Shown here: piece after piece, positions 50,603-54,346 of the stretch
Position numbering within the stretch: the stretch's first letter is position 1
Layout of the letters: each line of letters starts with the position of its first letter
Assembly: GCA_964493985.1 (NCBI GenBank)
Contig: CAZBQL010000005.1
Location: 1-54,534 of the forward strand
Direction: 5' to 3'
Source of the DNA: an uncultured Dehalococcoidales bacterium
GTDB taxonomy: Bacteria; Chloroflexota; Dehalococcoidia; Dehalococcoidales; UBA2162
Length of the DNA: 54,534 nt
The notes under the pieces: generated by a model
The model's input: only the letters and a program-made list of their open reading frames with translations
The model's database searches: none
Told to the model about the DNA's origin: nothing
Position numbers and translations under genes: made by a program

Positions 50603-51520
50603 ATGAAACGAGTAAAAACCTCGAAAGAAAAAAAAGAGTTAAAACAAGGTAACCATCTTAAGAGTGATTCTGAGTCATTATTTGACAAACCTTATTCACT
50701 GAATGAGACCGACAATATGAATTTAGATACTCCGTTTTATCCCAGGACGGACGAACATACGGCATTACTGGAAAAAGCGAGGACCGGTGAACAGGCTACA
50801 AAACTATTATTGCACCTGCAACGTTCATATGGTAATGCTTACGTTCAGCGACTTGTCAGAAACAGTAACCTCGGTAAAGTAAACTCCCCCGAGGTCCAGC
50901 GGCAGGAGTTTCCGGAAGAGGAGGAAGAGCTTCAGATGGAAACCTCCCGAGTACGCCAAGAAGATGAAGAGATAATCCCAGGCGCCCGGATGAAACCATT
51001 GAGAGAAAATGTCATACAACAACAAGGCGGTTCCGAGCGGAGCAATTCGCCGGTCCAGCGAGCCTCACCGTCATCCAGCGCGACCGGTAATATCGGTGAT
51101 GCTACTGATCTGGATGGCCAGGGCCTGTACGGTTGGAATAGAATTACCTATGATACAGATATTGCGACCGTCGTAAACGGTGTCATACCGACCGAGTCTT
51201 CAGAAGAAGAAATGCCAAGAATAGTCATATTTTCGGGAACTCATGGTACCGACCCCGGCGGTCATTTATTGAACGACGAAGATTCCCGCGAATTCGTGGG
51301 TGAGGACCAGGCAACCGCCAGCTCCGTTATGGCAGCCAATCCCGGAGTCCAGGTAGAAGTAATCGACGTAGTAAACTCGTACAGAACGAAAGGTGAATTA
51401 ACATCTATATATGGCATGACAGATTATATAAGAATCCTCGGATGGTGTTTCAGTCAACGATCCTACGGTCTCGGCAGCTCCATAAAATCCAACTGGTGGC
51501 CAGAACCGGACAATCTATAA
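50603..51520 (+). CDS. Putative CIS cargo: conserved leader plus C-terminal His/Cys peptidase-like (Tox-HDC-like) domain
   Basis: LQRSYGNAYVQRL leader, QRQE-poly-E tract, VQR junction, IFSGTHG...ED...GWCFS. Confidence 0.6.
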   Translation: MKRVKTSKEKKELKQGNHLKSDSESLFDKPYSLNETDNMNLDTPFYPRTDEHTALLEKARTGEQATKLLLHLQRSYGNAYVQRLVRNSNLGKVNSPEVQRQEFPEEEEELQMETSRVRQEDEEIIPGARMKPLRENVIQQQGGSERSNSPVQRASPSSSATGNIGDATDLDGQGLYGWNRITYDTDIATVVNGVIPTESSEEEMPRIVIFSGTHGTDPGGHLLNDEDSREFVGEDQATASSVMAANPGVQVEVIDVVNSYRTKGELTSIYGMTDYIRILGWCFSQRSYGLGSSIKSNWWPEPDNL

Positions 51521-51601
51521 CCGTACCCAGCCTACTGAAAGACACAGCTGGCCCTGTCTGCGCCGAGACGACCTTATTTAGGAATGCTTGGAGGTGTATT
51601 C

Positions 51602-52078
51602 ATGAAGTATGAAGATTTATACAGGTTTCCCGAGGGACATCCGCCATCTCCTTACGATCATCCTGTCAGGGCCCTCAATGTCGGGGAAGCTACTCTCCCA
51701 GCAGAACTTGAGCTTTACGCTGTCGGCTGGATCGAAGAATCCGGTTTTACAACGGGTGATGTTCCCGAAGAATTTGTAGAAGCATTAATTGCCGCCTATC
51801 CGACCAAGATAATTTCAGATGGGACAAGGGGGTTGCATACATGTACTTTATGCCATGTTTTATTACCCAAATTAGAGTGGAAGGGAAAGCAGGTTGAAGT
51901 GAAAGGTTATGGTCATTACCTTGTCCGGTATAAGAATGCAGTCTATATGGCTCCGGCTCTTCTTCTCCACTACATACTTGACCATCATTATCAACCGCCA
52001 CAAGCTTTCATTGATGCCGTAATAAACGGAAAGTTCTTGACAATCGATGACCTGGAAATTAAACGGAGCGATGAATGA
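51602..52078 (+). CDS. Conserved hypothetical protein with HxCxxC and HYxxxHxYxPP motifs (possible immunity protein)
   Basis: AVGWIE, GLHTCTLC, YMAPALLLHYILDHHYQPPQAFIDAV; GGAGGT RBS before ATG 51602. Confidence 0.65.
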   Translation: MKYEDLYRFPEGHPPSPYDHPVRALNVGEATLPAELELYAVGWIEESGFTTGDVPEEFVEALIAAYPTKIISDGTRGLHTCTLCHVLLPKLEWKGKQVEVKGYGHYLVRYKNAVYMAPALLLHYILDHHYQPPQAFIDAVINGKFLTIDDLEIKRSDE

Positions 52079-52581
52079 GCGTAGAAGAAGAACGACGATA
52101 TGACAACGTGCAGATCATAAACATTGCTGACGGCACGATAATCGAGGGACATGATGCCGTCAAGATGCAATTCGAACGCGAACATAAGATGTTTGCCGAA
52201 CACGGCGCCTCGATTATTTTTCAGGTGTATCGGCTGGATCTGCATGTGGACACACTCAAGGAATTTCAGGGCAAGAAGCTAGCGGAAATCAAGGTGGACG
52301 GTAACTTCGTCTCGGCGGACGACACTGTAGCAGCGGTTAAGGACAAAGTACGGTCTTTGCTAAAGAAAAAAGCTGGAATCTGGACCAAGAGCCAGGCGAA
52401 TACCGCCCTGGGTATCGAGGCATCTGACCACCTCACACTCTATCTTAATGGCAATCCCATGAAGGATGACACAGCCTTTTATGCTGATAACCCCATTGTG
52501 TTACCGGTCTGGATACAGGTATTGCTGCATGACTGCGAGTCTGAAGAGGCTGTACAGCTTGTAAACAAACTCCAGAAATGA
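52075..52581 (+). CDS. Hypothetical protein with a ubiquitin-like (beta-grasp) sequence pattern
   Basis: VSADDTVAAVKDKV...GI...LTLYLNGNPMKDD; ATGA overlap with the upstream gene. Confidence 0.55.
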   Translation: MSVEEERRYDNVQIINIADGTIIEGHDAVKMQFEREHKMFAEHGASIIFQVYRLDLHVDTLKEFQGKKLAEIKVDGNFVSADDTVAAVKDKVRSLLKKKAGIWTKSQANTALGIEASDHLTLYLNGNPMKDDTAFYADNPIVLPVWIQVLLHDCESEEAVQLVNKLQK

Positions 52582-52804
52582 TGATAACATCCCGATCGCG
52601 TTATCAAGCTACTAGAGAGGGTTTCTGCTCATTTTCTTTATTCACCATGTACCCAGCATCTCTGGAAATTAACCGTTTTTTTACCTTTGATTAACTAGAG
52701 TGATGTATAATAGCTCCGTATAAAGCTGATGGCTGTTGTTATCATGACATCGTTCAGGTTTCGTGTACGTTTGATATCGAAAATTGCATGTTGCAGGTGA
52801 TGAA

Positions 52805-54346
52805 ATGGAAAAGAATGATAAAGTGAAGAAAAATAAAAAGAATGATAAAGACCAGAAACAGCATCAAGCGCAGCACGGTTTTGATCCAATAGTTGATAAA
52901 TCACCTGCAAGAGATACAGACCAATCCCTGTTGATGGAAACACCTTTTTACTCGAGGATGGATGAGCATGCCGCAACACTCTCAAGGATTCCTTTTACCG
53001 TACAGCGTCAAGAGTATATTATGCGACTTAATAATACGTACGGACTAAGGTATGTACAACGTTTGCTTGAATCGGTTAACGGACAGGCCAAACTCACAGT
53101 CAGCAGCCCCGGTGATATTTACGAACAAGAAGCTGATAAAGTCGCTGATGAAGTCACTCAAAAAATCAATATCCAGGCACAGCGGCAGGAAGTGCCGGAA
53201 GAGGAAGAGTTAATACAAGGCAAACTGGATATACAGAGGCAGGAAGAGCTAGAGGAGGAGGAGTTGCTGCAGGCGAAGCTGGATATTCAGAAGCAAGAGG
53301 AAGAGGAAGAAGAAGAGGAAATCCAAGCCCAGCGTCAGGAGGAGGAAGAGGAAGAAGAAGAGGAAATCCAGGCGCAGCGACAGGAAGAAGAGGAAGAAGA
53401 GCTGGTCCAGGTGAAACGGGATGAAAATGCCGAAGCGGATGTTGCTGATGAGATAGAGATGCGGATTAACAATGCAAAGGGGAGTGGTCATTCTTTATCG
53501 GGTGAAGTTAAAAAACCAATGGAGCAGGCGTTCGGTACCGATTTCAGCAATGTCAAGATACATACTGATACGGAGGCAGATACACTTAATAAGCAATTAA
53601 ACGCAAAGGCATTTACTACCGGCAAGGATATATTCTTCCGCGATGGTGAATACAGCCCCGGCTCTGATGGTGGTAAGAAGTTAATTGCCCACGAACTCAC
53701 GCATGTAGTGCAGCAAAATAGTAACGTAGCGAATAGAAATAGTATAAAAACGCAAATTCAGAGATGGACCTGGGACGGTATCAAAGATAATATACCAGAC
53801 TCTACCAATAATAACTTACAGGGATATAAAATTTATAAGATGGATACGTTAGCATGGACATCGACACTGTATAAAAAAAGGTGGTTTCCATTCTTTAATA
53901 AGAAGGTCGAAGAACCACAACAACATTATGCGAAAGCATATCACAGTCGACAAAGTGGGGAAATAGGAATAAGCAGGGACTTTGATGATAATGAAGCTGC
54001 TGCAACGATAGTTCATGAAGCTACACACGCCGAGCAGTATAATAGAAAGGAAAGTCAGTATAATTTTGGGACGTTAATCGAACGTGAGATTGAGGCACAT
54101 ATAGAAGAAGAGAAGTTTCGAATTGCACATGATATGCAACCAAAGACATATGGCATCGCTGAGCTAAAAGATCACCAGATAGAGCGTAATAAAGATGGGA
54201 GTATAAATGAACAATCAGTTGAAGATTTTGTAAGATGGAGGTATAGAGGGAATATCCTAAAGAAGGAGTTTTATTATCTAAGACAGCCAGAACCAGTACC
54301 TGGGAATTTTCAGAACAAGGAATTAATACATGCGTATATAAAATAA
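52805..54346 (+). CDS. DUF4157 (eCIS core) protein with a C-terminal second zincin domain
   Basis: LTVSSPGDIYEQEADKVA, G.G.SL....K.PMEQAFG.DFSNVKIHTD...LNAKAFTTGKDIFF...YSP......LIAHELTHVVQQ; then IQR and IVHEATH...EIEAH; likely start MEKND. Confidence 0.9.
   Translation: MEKNDKVKKNKKNDKDQKQHQAQHGFDPIVDKSPARDTDQSLLMETPFYSRMDEHAATLSRIPFTVQRQEYIMRLNNTYGLRYVQRLLESVNGQAKLTVSSPGDIYEQEADKVADEVTQKINIQAQRQEVPEEEELIQGKLDIQRQEELEEEELLQAKLDIQKQEEEEEEEEIQAQRQEEEEEEEEEIQAQRQEEEEEELVQVKRDENAEADVADEIEMRINNAKGSGHSLSGEVKKPMEQAFGTDFSNVKIHTDTEADTLNKQLNAKAFTTGKDIFFRDGEYSPGSDGGKKLIAHELTHVVQQNSNVANRNSIKTQIQRWTWDGIKDNIPDSTNNNLQGYKIYKMDTLAWTSTLYKKRWFPFFNKKVEEPQQHYAKAYHSRQSGEIGISRDFDDNEAAATIVHEATHAEQYNRKESQYNFGTLIEREIEAHIEEEKFRIAHDMQPKTYGIAELKDHQIERNKDGSINEQSVEDFVRWRYRGNILKKEFYYLRQPEPVPGNFQNKELIHAYIK
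53174..53410 (+). repeat. Coding tandem repeats, five Q(R/K)QE-poly-Glu units
   Basis: QRQEVPEEEELIQ / QRQEELEEEELLQ / QKQE8IQ / QRQE9IQ / QRQE6LVQ. Confidence 0.85.

Follow-up and report, generated by a model that had tools for sequence, protein, structure and literature searches.

PVC payloads reportedly carry N-terminal signal peptides that are recognised via Pvc15, as Jiang and colleagues are said to have found in 2022. In the T6SS, MIX and FIX are a conserved N-terminal motif or domain that marks polymorphic effectors, and the repertoire can be enumerated with them, including orphan loci far from the machine. As N-terminal markers on polymorphic effectors of a contractile system they resemble the leader described here, although they belong to another secretion system, have no sequence relationship to it and contribute to loading in a way that is only partly understood.

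In AlgoCIS, the cargo proteins Cgo1 and Cgo2 have a common N-terminal region and DUF4157 but differing C-terminal domains (Xu et al. 2022, PMC8894135), and it has been shown experimentally that their loading is conferred by N-terminal sequence, DUF4157 being dispensable (PROCIS preprint 10.64898/2026.05.27.728243). The locus studied here is similar in that two cargo genes of one eCIS have a common N-terminal region and different C-terminal domains with DUF4157 in between, one of these domains (that of ORF B) being, as in AlgoCIS, a putative metalloprotease; the AlgoCIS cluster also encodes an AAA+ ATPase. However, the N-terminal region of AlgoCIS cargo is described as mostly disordered and system-specific, whereas the core here is a confidently predicted three-helix module found at a fixed N-terminal distance in hundreds of clusters across a whole bacterial class, and one of the two cargos here lacks DUF4157 and lies beside a putative immunity gene. 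PVC payloads use N-terminal signals with Pvc15 (PMC11495950). They likewise carry a tag of about 50 residues, transferable in principle, on otherwise unrelated payloads, with a cluster-encoded AAA+ ATPase, but they lack DUF4157, their signals are disordered and of demonstrated function, and no sequence similarity was found between these signals and the leader.

The PVC-metallopeptidase polymorphic toxins (Zhang et al. 2012, PMC3482391) also combine a constant N-terminal part with C-terminal toxin domains swapped by recombination, and occur as several paralogues per genome beside phage-tail-like clusters that include an AAA+ ATPase; there the constant part is the metallopeptidase, whereas here it is an upstream leader that survives without the peptidase. 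The Streptomyces CIS with Sle1/Sle2 and Tme (10.1101/2025.11.06.686954; PMC11126660) shares with this locus cargo genes beside the CIS operon, a small DUF4157 protein, a SARP-type regulator and effectors without DUF4157 that adjoin DUF4157 genes, but its effectors use tape-measure-like coiled coils and have a separate DUF4157 protein as interaction partner, and they lack a common short helical leader.

Organisation of the locus

The window, that is, the whole stretch of 54,534 nucleotides analysed, contains the following features, with positions counted from its first nucleotide.

48960-50024, minus strand: SARP/BTAD-family transcriptional regulator (Pfam BTAD, 5.2e-26)
50603-51520, plus strand: ORF A, 305 aa; leader, disordered acidic linker and Tox-HDC-like domain, without DUF4157
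50603-50725, plus strand: ORF A pre-leader, residues 1-41, basic (9 K+R in 41) and predicted disordered (pLDDT 32-49, no secondary structure)
50726-50854, plus strand: leader A, residues 42-84, DTPFYPRTDEH...YGNAYVQRL (leader HMM, 2.3e-34)
50855-51061, plus strand: ORF A linker, residues 85-153 (pLDDT mostly <50)
51062-51517, plus strand: Tox-HDC-like domain, residues 154-305, with H214 (SGTHG), D235/D255 and C282 (WCFS) conserved
51584-52078, plus strand: DUF7919 protein, 164 aa, candidate immunity protein for ORF A (Pfam PF25535, 8e-28)
52075-52581, plus strand: conserved 168-aa protein, third cassette gene; its start overlaps the DUF7919 stop codon (ATGA)
52805-54346, plus strand: ORF B, 513 aa from ATG; leader, EAD helix, acidic QRQE repeats, DUF4157/eCIS_core and a putative second metallopeptidase as C-terminal domain
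52937-53065, plus strand: leader B, residues 45-87 from the ATG, ETPFYSRMDEH...YGLRYVQRL (leader HMM, 4.6e-32)
53084-53167, plus strand: QAKLTVSSPGDIYEQEADKVADEV helix (EAD helix), predicted at residues 105-128 (pLDDT 89-94)
53168-53452, plus strand: acidic repeat linker of [AI]QRQEEEEE units, 47 D+E in 122 residues
53495-53722, plus strand: DUF4157/eCIS_core zincin, HELTHVVQQ at 53690-53716 (PF13699, 2.1e-33; pLDDT 95-98)
53756-53764, plus strand: IQR motif before the variable C-terminal domain
53765-54343, plus strand: ORF B C-terminal domain, a second HExxH domain (HEATHAEQ at 54014-54037)
54485-54532, minus strand: 3' end of a Tail_P2_I-type baseplate gene, 16 codons inside the window; its operon is convergent with the cargo genes

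The regulator gene is transcribed divergently from the cargo genes. BTAD regulators are typical eCIS neighbours (Geller 2021, PMC8213781), and a BTAD gene lies within the eCIS neighbourhood, in varying gene order, in L001, L003, L005, L007, L015-L017 and other loci. At its far end the window cuts the Tail_P2_I gene, where the eCIS structural operon begins. The translation of this gene end, QKPAHTVYTLQVITH, agrees with QKPAHTIYTLQVRQREP, encoded by the L001 Tail_P2_I gene, at 11 of the first 12 residues, both running to the stop codon, and its DNA is 88% identical to L007 10682-10740 (blastn). The window's own eCIS is known here from this 16-codon gene end and from synteny alone; the syntenic loci L001, L002 and L007 go on with Baseplate_J, gp25, PAAR, VgrG and CIS_tube-LysM. 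The two cargo genes occupy a variable cargo slot, with the SARP regulator on one side and the eCIS operon, at its 3' end, on the other.

ORF A has a GGGAGGG ribosome-binding site upstream of its ATG, and its linker contains VQRQEFPEEEEE (50894-50929), PGARMKPLRE (from 50972) and VQR (51053-51061), the Arg of which (R153) is invariant in 39 toxin homologues carrying different leaders. The Tox-HDC-like domain is predicted at a pLDDT of about 90, and no fold match was found for it in the PDB. ORF A itself scores 18.4 bits against Pfam PF15656, under the cut-off of 21, and 17 of the 39 homologues of its toxin domain match Tox-HDC at ≤ 1e-3. A DUF7919 gene directly downstream of the Tox-HDC gene is also present in L003, L004, L005 and L006, and its product is likely the immunity protein for ORF A. 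Copies of the 168-aa protein, 75-77% identical, occupy the same position in L003-L006; the protein has no Pfam, NCBIfam or PADLOC match. The cassette 50958-52592 is 81-83% identical to that of L003, whereas the regulators are only 47% identical as protein. Tox-HDC was described by Zhang et al. 2012 (PMC3482391) only in T2SS/RHS toxins of beta- and gamma-proteobacteria, without an immunity protein; here it is eCIS-linked, chloroflexotal and accompanied by a conserved DUF7919 neighbour.

For ORF B, an alternative TTG start at 52784 would give 520 aa, but the ATG at 52805 is most likely the true start, because an AGGTGA ribosome-binding site lies ahead of it and because the YG glycine then falls on residue 80, its position in most family members. 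The QAKLTVSSPGDIYEQEADKVADEV module accompanies DUF4157; leader proteins without DUF4157 have lost it or keep a degenerate form, and it is absent from ORF A and from P0005. The acidic linker differs in length among near-identical ORF B relatives. In the C-terminal domain there is a marginal match to the putative metallopeptidase family DUF6782 at 53924-54049 (PF20573, 27.8 bits against a cut-off of 27).

Conservation and shuffling of the leader

According to the original prediction, the two proteins share an ungapped 43-residue stretch preceded by a Lys-rich N-terminus and followed by QRQE(F/V)PEEEE, and only the second contains DUF4157. The translations of 50726-50854 and 52937-53065 confirm 19/43 identities (44%), behind Lys/Arg-rich stretches of about 41-44 residues (K+R = 9 in A, 10 in B); the acidic motif reads VQRQEFPEEEEE in A (residues 98-109) and AQRQEVPEEEE in B, and PF13699 (eCIS_core, formerly DUF4157) scores 114.7 bits in ORF B against a cut-off of 22. 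The two leaders are homologous, with a BLOSUM62 score of 95 that is reached in 0/1000 shuffles (best 43-residue windows 30.8 ± 5.6, maximum 60), and whole ORF A aligns with whole ORF B at E = 2e-11 across 119 columns (BLASTP). Nucleotide identity is 63/129, and 13/43 at third codon positions, which are saturated, so the similarity is conserved at the protein level and does not reflect a recent duplication. Leader A and the L007 leader are identical in 36/43 residues and differ by 14 synonymous versus 7 non-synonymous codon changes; the leader is under purifying selection.

The leader is confidently predicted as a three-helix fold behind a disordered basic N-terminus, with helices at residues 49-58, 63-76 and 78-87 in A and 52-61, 65-79 and 81-93 in B (pLDDT 88-94; AlphaFold2, 95-sequence alignment), residues 1-47 ahead of the helices of B being predicted disordered in the same model.

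It had been expected that a leader HMM would give many matches with variable C-termini, and this is borne out well beyond the two genes: profile A1 matches 580 clusters (50% identity) at E ≤ 1e-3 and 250 at E ≤ 1e-10. The position of the leader is fixed, with the match spanning residues ~43-99 in nearly all of the 150 best-scoring proteins, whose lengths range from 109 to 1118 aa; most members have the GN motif at residue 80 and ExEAD at residue 104, and the Q and R of YVQRL are invariant. Among 144 scanned members, 96 contain eCIS_core, the remaining members having Aspzincin_M35, Peptidase_C70, DUF922, Peptidase_C39_2, DUF4329, Tox-HDC, DUF6782, OmpA or nothing annotated.

Leaders, DUF4157 and C-terminal domains are combinatorially shuffled. 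DUF4157 and Tox-HDC are each found with A-type and with B-type leaders; P0055 and P0067 have N-termini near-identical to that of ORF B and unrelated C-terminal domains, P0055 being near-identical through HELTHVVQQ and unrelated beyond; P0090 has the C-terminal domain of ORF B on a different leader subtype; and an L012 protein has that of P0042 without DUF4157. At the DNA level, the window and L007 are similar from the regulator side across the intergenic region and into leader A; the similarity ends at 50872, six codons past the 43-mer, and restarts at 53084, six codons past leader B.

Since about two thirds of the carriers have DUF4157, the leader is mainly a conserved N-terminal extension of a DUF4157 subfamily in which DUF4157 is optional. 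The proposed independence from DUF4157 stands insofar as complete proteins carry the leader without it, but given the majority that have both, leader function may be tied to the zincin, in cis or in trans from a neighbouring gene.

These data also bear on the reading that the leader has no function of its own and is a remnant of common descent, of gene conversion between paralogous cargo genes, or of chance. Carriers that lack DUF4157, such as P0004, P0007 and P0010, retain degenerate EAD remnants, which suggests descent from DUF4157 genes by deletion. We nevertheless consider this reading disfavoured and very improbable in view of the shuffling result, the protein-level conservation despite saturated third positions, the excess of synonymous changes relative to L007, and the fixed N-terminal position in 580 clusters with unrelated C-termini.

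Linkage to eCIS and taxonomic range

Linkage to CIS had also been anticipated, and eCIS structural genes lie ≤ 10 kb away in 25 of 35 leader-bearing genome loci, the window itself adjoining eCIS baseplate genes. None of the eCIS or neighbourhood markers used was found within 10 kb in 8 of the 35, and L011 and L015 have, among these markers, conserved neighbourhood genes only. The leader gene is directly 3' of an AAA ATPase gene in 13 loci, and in at least 8 it comes after the operon's Tail_P2_I end or accessory genes; four-gene leader arrays occur in L013 and L015. The supposed lineage specificity holds for the full leader, which among reference genomes is limited to Dehalococcoidia/Chloroflexota MAGs, but not for its C-terminal half (LQRxYGNxYVQRL), which MAGs of Competibacteraceae, Blastocatellia and Acidobacteriaceae encode as well. 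In the first two groups the proteins have DUF4157 and are encoded after an AAA ATPase gene; the Acidobacteriaceae protein (L036) has neither.

The many leader genes that adjoin the baseplate end of the operon, together with a leader predicted to be folded rather than disordered, would suit a structural adaptor, in which the helical leader docks cargo on the spike or tube-initiator complex without ATPase signalling, and the cargo rides on the spike instead of filling the lumen, as with tape-measure-like or Sle2-like proteins. A Streptomyces lividans DUF4157 protein, tested for binding to tube-initiator, spike-hub and spike, has been proposed to connect an effector with the core of the baseplate (bioRxiv 10.1101/2025.11.06.686954), but that interaction belongs to the DUF4157 protein and not to an N-terminal leader. 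The 13 loci in which the leader gene immediately follows that of the AAA+ ATPase fit ATPase-coupled loading, and docking of this kind is a sub-variant of a loading signal, not a truly different function; we regard it as improbable.

QR motifs and the probable role of the leader

Beyond residue 100, [VIL]QR occurs 277 times in the 144 family members against 35.7 ± 6.5 expected, 224 of the 277 being [VILA]QRQ inside acidic repeats. Among the DUF4157 members, 91 have a tail of >60 residues and 68 have such a motif after the domain; in 45 of these 68, [VILMA]Q[RK] lies ≤ 30 residues after HExxHxxQ. The IQR motif of ORF B persists as TIQR, EIER or QIQR in relatives, though their surrounding linker and C-terminal domain are unrelated. 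[VIL]QR is strongly enriched, but the prediction that the proteins switch domains right after VQR or IQR is imprecise: near-identical relatives of ORF B diverge right after HELTHVVQQ, ~14 residues before IQR, and in ORF A the module common to toxins with other leaders begins near residue 124, ~27 residues before VQR.

This enrichment, with the invariant Q/R of YVQRL and R153 of ORF A, is what would be expected if LQR...YVQRL and the linker [VIL]QR were recognition or cleavage sites for the DUF4157 zincin, which would act on ORF B in cis and on ORF A in trans. On this reading the leader would serve as a removable propeptide, holding the toxin inactive or unfolded until release, and the loading information might lie in another part of the protein, such as the basic, disordered stretch of ~45 residues at the N-terminus. 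Zhang et al. 2012 (PMC3482391) suggested that the PVC-metallopeptidase is a releasing peptidase acting by autoproteolysis, and DUF4157 genes often adjoin cargo without DUF4157 (Danov et al. 2024, PMC11297309). However, the toxicity of AlgoCIS Cgo1 is independent of the DUF4157 metalloprotease motif (PMC8894135) and DUF4157 is dispensable for loading there, the QRQ motifs in acidic repeats could be a mere repeat unit, and the TPFYPRMDEH half and the fixed distance from the N-terminus are left unexplained. Such processing seems unlikely, if somewhat less so than the structural adaptor.

The loading sequences known from eCIS are described as disordered and as little conserved from one system to another, whereas the leader is predicted folded and is strongly conserved, so that it could instead dock, act as a chaperone-like prodomain or be a processing site.

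Judged from genomic context and from the parallel with the cargo leaders of PVC and AlgoCIS, the 43-residue stretch is probably the central part of a conserved N-terminal module that the cargo of Dehalococcoidia eCIS (Afp/PVC-like) carries as a loading tag. In this module, ~45 disordered basic residues precede the three-helix leader of ~45 residues (TPFYPRMDEHAAxL ... LQxxYGNxYVQRL), followed optionally by the 'QAKLTVSxPxDIYEQEADRVA' helix, acidic QRQEEEE repeats and the DUF4157 zincin, and then by a short linker, often with [VIL]QR, that leads to a freely exchangeable C-terminal effector domain. The N-terminal module would mark the protein as cargo; its recognition by a Pvc15-like AAA+ ATPase and/or the tube-initiator/spike complex of the same system would lead to packing of the attached toxin into the tube lumen. 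As the constant part, the leader coding sequence may also serve as an in-register joint for recombination that swaps cassettes of toxin domain and immunity genes. Earlier publications on AlgoCIS and PVC have already described the principle of a common N-terminal region combined with an optional DUF4157 and a C-terminal domain that varies, and the family described here is a new example of it.

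The cargo slot and its surroundings

The last 48 bases of the window encode, on the minus strand, QKPAHTVYTLQVITH, which matches the C-terminus QKPAHTIYTLQVRQREP of the Tail_P2_I baseplate protein on the syntenic contig L001. On the regulator side, the gene order (Ig-like 601-aa gene, DUF4159, BTAD) is common to the window and the homologous loci L001, L002, and L007, the last being the reference MAG locus from Dehalococcoidia bacterium W403; past the cargo slot, these three loci continue with Tail_P2_I, Baseplate_J, gp25, PAAR, VgrG, and CIS_tube-LysM. The match at the window edge and this synteny indicate that the two neighboring toxin-like cargo genes, ORF A and ORF B, occupy a slot bounded on one side by the regulator and on the other by the 3′ end of a convergent operon that encodes an extracellular contractile injection system (eCIS) and is cut by the window end. 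Exact-sequence contig look-ups of ORF A and ORF B (both starts) returned no record, and the gene context was therefore taken from homologues. The features of the region are as follows.

45041-45793, minus strand: collagen-repeat protein
45821-47626, minus strand: 601-aa protein with Ig-like/FixG_C-type domains
47674-48894, minus strand: DUF4159 protein, N-terminus weakly matching NCBIfam CIS13 (56.5 bits vs cut-off 370)
48960-50024, divergent from ORF A: SARP/BTAD regulator
50603-51520, plus strand: ORF A, 305 aa
51584-52078, plus strand: DUF7919 gene (match at 8e-28)
52075-52581, plus strand: unannotated 168-aa gene, its ATG overlapping the DUF7919 stop codon (ATGA)
52784-54346, plus strand: ORF B, 520 aa from TTG or 513 aa from ATG 52805, the ATG being the more likely start

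Of the three genes upstream of the SARP regulator, the Ig-like and DUF4159 genes also adjoin the eCIS operon in L001, L007, L012, L013, L015-L017, L019, and L020; they may encode accessory parts, for example a fiber or anchor. The intergenic region between the regulator and ORF A (50025-50602, 578 bp) is AT-rich, ~76% conserved with L007 and likely a SARP-controlled promoter region, with TTGACA-17-AATACT at 50498-50526 as the sole informative site in a promoter/terminator scan. No gene lies between ORF B and the operon end. A CIS inside the window was rejected, the ORFs at 15-41 kb being housekeeping genes (PFK, RecA, RNase Y, P-type ATPase), as is the remainder of the window beyond the cargo island; the AAA+ ATPase of this genome is encoded beyond the window. 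A zinc/iron-chelating-domain protein of the CxxCxxCC type (PF03692) is regularly encoded in the Dehalococcoidia eCIS loci L001 (9271-9885), L003 (10844-11506), and L005 (5250-5873), mostly with the AAA ATPase gene on one side and Pvc16_N on the other; it does not count among the recognized eCIS core components and is absent from the in-window part of the locus. A literature search returned nothing relevant tying Dehalococcoidia to CIS.

The leader and its family

Both 43-residue leaders of the original prediction were found exactly, leader A at 50726-50854 and leader B at 52937-53065, and they align without gaps with 19 of 43 residues identical. Their BLOSUM62 score is 95 vs 30.8 ± 5.6 for the best 43-residue windows of shuffled sequences, of which 0 in 1000 reach 95, and full-length BLASTP of ORF A against ORF B gives E = 2e-11. 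The leader is N-terminal in both proteins (residues 42-84 in ORF A, 45-87 in ORF B), each of which also carries the basic pre-leader and the QRQE(F/V)PEEEE element ascribed to it. These are the only two leader genes in the window. At the DNA level the leaders share only 63 of 129 positions, and 13 of 43 third codon positions, which points to an old similarity kept at the protein level; a recent tandem duplication of the leader is ruled out by the saturated third positions. The codon differences between leader A and its L007 counterpart (14 synonymous, seven non-synonymous) make purifying selection visible, and a leader without function of its own is scarcely credible.

The leader profile A1 (65 positions, built from the two window leaders and nine homologues) was searched exhaustively against 1.84 billion representative proteins, which was needed because a word-indexed homologue search with the leader profile gave only nine short fragments. 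As anticipated for such a profile, many proteins matched, with 580 clusters at E ≤ 1e-3 and 250 at E ≤ 1e-10. The match almost always falls at residues ~43-99 (top 150 members, 109-1118 aa long), and most family members have the glycine of YGN as residue 80 and ExEAD at position 104. A PDB sequence search with the leader profile gave nothing below E = 0.2. The predicted variability of the C-termini is borne out in the 144 members scanned with Pfam: eCIS_core (DUF4157) is present in 96 and the rest are mixed, with Aspzincin_M35, Peptidase_C70, DUF922, Peptidase_C39_2, DUF4329, OmpA, DUF6782, and Tox-HDC among the other domains and most C-termini carrying no annotation. Complete leader proteins lacking DUF4157 are common, in agreement with the proposed independence of the two.

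A scan of one genome per species located the leader in 35 loci. The suggested lineage restriction holds in part: nearly all loci are in Dehalococcoidia, Dehalococcoidales, or Chloroflexota MAGs, but the C-terminal half LQRxYGNxYVQRL, and that half only, is also matched in Competibacteraceae, Blastocatellia, and Acidobacteriaceae. The Competibacteraceae and Blastocatellia proteins contain DUF4157 and are encoded directly after an AAA ATPase gene, whereas the Acidobacteriaceae protein has neither within its locus (L036). One partial leader protein (P0045) is assigned by NCBI to a Candidatus Bathyarchaeota archaeon MAG, which is either a binning error or a transfer outside Chloroflexota.

Effector domains, the Tox-HDC cassette and module exchange

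As originally noted, DUF4157 is confined to ORF B, where eCIS_core (PF13699) scores 114.7 bits vs a cut-off of 22 with the HExxHxxQ signature present as HELTHVVQQ; ORF A has no match. The C-terminal domain of ORF B holds a second HExxH motif, HEATHAEQ, around which the putative metallopeptidase family DUF6782 (PF20573) matches marginally, at 27.8 bits (cut-off 27) and over just 42 of the 241 positions of the profile. For Tox-HDC (PF15656), ORF A reaches 18.4 bits, below the gathering cut-off of 21 (E = 0.0026); the same family matches 17 of its 39 homologues at ≤ 1e-3 (best 8.8e-6), and most carry it as a precomputed label. The His, Asp/Asn, and Cys residues of Tox-HDC are recovered in the 39 sequences as a nearly invariant H214 and invariant D235, D255, and C282, and residues 155-305 are modeled by AlphaFold2 at pLDDT ~90. 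Foldseek against PDB gave no significant match for the ORF A or ORF B model, and NCBIfam and PADLOC returned nothing for the four cargo-island proteins.

The Tox-HDC gene is always followed by the DUF7919 and ~169-aa protein genes in five loci, namely the window and L003, L004, L005, and L006. Because the cassette recurs in this way, DUF7919, and perhaps also the third gene, likely has an immunity function for the Tox-HDC toxin. The 168-aa protein, 75-77% identical as the third gene in every Tox-HDC/DUF7919 cassette seen and without a family match, may act as a further immunity component or as a chaperone, and the overlap of its start with the DUF7919 stop suggests translational coupling. A literature search found nothing on DUF7919.

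Three further observations concern Tox-HDC homologues. The 288-aa metagenome protein P0035 combines, in a single reading frame, the N-terminal two thirds of a Tox-HDC toxin (to ...PGVQVELI) with a C-terminal portion of DUF7919, as if a deletion had merged the toxin and immunity genes and taken out the toxin's Cys region. Ahead of the toxin domain, the linkers carry an (E/D)-rich ...(L/Y)xYPGPR(S/T) unit in one to three copies (columns ~200-260 of the homologue alignment A4), represented in ORF A at residues ~120-135 by IIPGARMKPLRE. On a 5.4-Mb genome contig (L004 5749-12000), DDE_5 and rve transposase genes adjoin an orphan Tox-HDC/DUF7919/169-aa cassette that has a second leader class. The eCIS markers used gave no hit up to 10 kb away, which suggests that cassettes move.

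Every Tox-HDC homologue carries some N-terminal leader, of the A type (LLLHLQRSYGNAYVQRL), the B type (IMRLNNTYGxRYVQRL), or the second class (LSPADIVRLSGIIGNRAVARLM), which has only the GNxxVxRL core in common; DUF4157 and Tox-HDC are each found behind A-type and B-type leaders alike. The idea that L003 has an orphan toxin cassette without a leader was rejected, as the gene call of its toxin P0008 is N-terminally truncated. In this part of L003 (6524-7115), the frame upstream of the call encodes the second leader class (MAHHAKIHVQPE...LSPADVISLSVIIGNRAVARLM). A 63-aa ORF (6524-6715) that directly follows the AAA ATPase gene there is similar to leader proteins in the basic pre-leader alone, and could be what is left of a disrupted cargo gene.

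Close relatives display the constant N-terminus and abrupt C-terminal switch of polymorphic toxins. ORF B hardly differs from P0055 as far as HELTHVVQQ but is unrelated to it beyond that point, as is also seen with P0067, while P0090, with an N-terminus only ~50% identical, has the C-terminal domain of ORF B. A leader protein in L012 carries the C-terminal domain of P0042 without DUF4157. In nucleotide sequence, the window and L007 are collinear over 45002-50872, a stretch that takes in the regulator, the intergenic region up to ORF A, and leader A and ends six codons past the 43-mer; similarity restarts at 53084, six codons past leader B. The cassette in between (50958-52592) is 81-83% identical to that of L003, whose regulator protein is only 47% identical. 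From this shuffling of leaders, DUF4157, and C-terminal domains and from the DNA joints, the leader is thus the constant part, marking an in-register joint where the variable parts differ as in classical polymorphic toxins.

Proposed role in eCIS loading

The expected CIS linkage was recovered by tblastn with eCIS proteins from L001, L003, and L005 as probes: eCIS structural genes lie no more than 10 kb away in 25 of the 35 loci. The leader gene starts directly after the AAA+ ATPase gene in 13 loci and follows the Tail_P2_I end of the operon or accessory genes in at least eight. L013 and L015 each contain a run of four leader genes, several other loci contain pairs, and the arrays of two to four in L013, L015, and L019 have differing C-termini. 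Within one system, the leader can be common to unrelated effectors, as with the Tox-HDC-like ORF A and ORF B with its DUF4157 and HExxH domain.

Because of this genomic linkage, the fixed N-terminal position, the sharing among unrelated effectors, and published precedents, the N-terminal module probably serves Dehalococcoidia eCIS as the element by which cargo is recognized and loaded. Its reader would be a Pvc15-like AAA+ ATPase and/or the tube-initiator/spike complex, with DUF4157 as an optional insert and the C-terminal domain as an exchangeable effector. That the leader is instead a spike-docking adaptor, really a variant of loading, seems quite improbable; the gene positions next to the baseplate end of the operon speak for it, those next to the ATPase gene against it. 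[quoted passage not shown] PVC payload signals act with Pvc15 (PMC11495950). DUF4157 is a marker of eCIS and toxins (PMC8213781, PMC11297309), and PVC-metallopeptidase toxins with constant N- and variable C-termini were described in 2012 (PMC3482391, Zhang et al. 2012).

The AlphaFold2 model of ORF B (95-sequence alignment) has residues 1-47 disordered, followed by three leader helices (52-61, 65-79, and 81-93, pLDDT 88-94), a further confident helix over DIYEQEADKVADEV, a low-confidence acidic linker, and DUF4157 at pLDDT 95-98. The same three helices are predicted in ORF A at pLDDT 66-71 from a shallower alignment. Both models suggest that the 43-mer is a small folded module preceded by a disordered basic tail. 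PVC and AlgoCIS signals are described as disordered, whereas the leader is predicted to be helical, with the disordered residues 1-47 ahead of it.

The VQR/IQR motif is real as a family feature, [VIL]QR past residue 100 occurring 277 times in 144 members vs 35.7 ± 6.5 in shuffles; 224 of these occurrences are [VILA]QRQ inside acidic repeats. As a junction it is approximate, since ORF B breaks after HELTHVVQQ and the ORF A module starts from ~124. In 45 of the 68 DUF4157 members that have such a motif after the domain (among 91 with a tail of > 60 residues), [VILMA]Q[RK] lies within 30 residues past HExxHxxQ, and R153 of the ORF A VQR is invariant in 39 homologues. These motifs bear on the reading of the leader as a propeptide or processing site tied to the DUF4157 zincin, which we consider unlikely. 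Rather unlikely, too, is a dual role in which the invariant core [LI]xLQxx[YI]GNx[YA]VxRL[LVM], with its two [VL]QR motifs, forms a cross-phylum eCIS cargo code and the leader is more than a lineage-specific tag, combining docking on a Pvc15-like AAA+ ATPase with a DUF4157 cleavage site. As a small folded domain, the core would serve for docking and be read by the ATPase, and the zincin, in cis or in trans, would later cut leader and linkers at [VIL]QR, freeing the effector. If true, DUF4157 would gain a function and the adjacency of DUF4157-less cargo to DUF4157 genes would be explained.

eCIS are under development as programmable protein-delivery devices, and cargo choice and loading are their least understood step. 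The principle behind the favored loading role is already known and current models stand; the AlgoCIS/PVC principle is extended to a further lineage, in which the signal is unusually conserved. As far as searched, what is new is a specific, strongly conserved, apparently folded leader family without Pfam, NCBIfam, or PDB coverage for these proteins, the occurrence of this family in hundreds of cargo clusters of an uncultured class, its presence in proteins that have DUF4157 as well as in those that lack it, and the link to eCIS of a Tox-HDC branch that has a conserved DUF7919 neighbor. The leader is a well-defined, searchable marker that allows Dehalococcoidia cargo, including DUF4157-less and orphan cargo, to be listed, and it exposes many unannotated effector domains as well as the candidate Tox-HDC/DUF7919 toxin-immunity pair. 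The optional presence of DUF4157 between leader and effector narrows the hypotheses on this long-unexplained domain. As a folded candidate loading domain whose interaction with the AAA+ ATPase or spike is open to structural tests, the leader provides a useful marker and test bed for eCIS loading.
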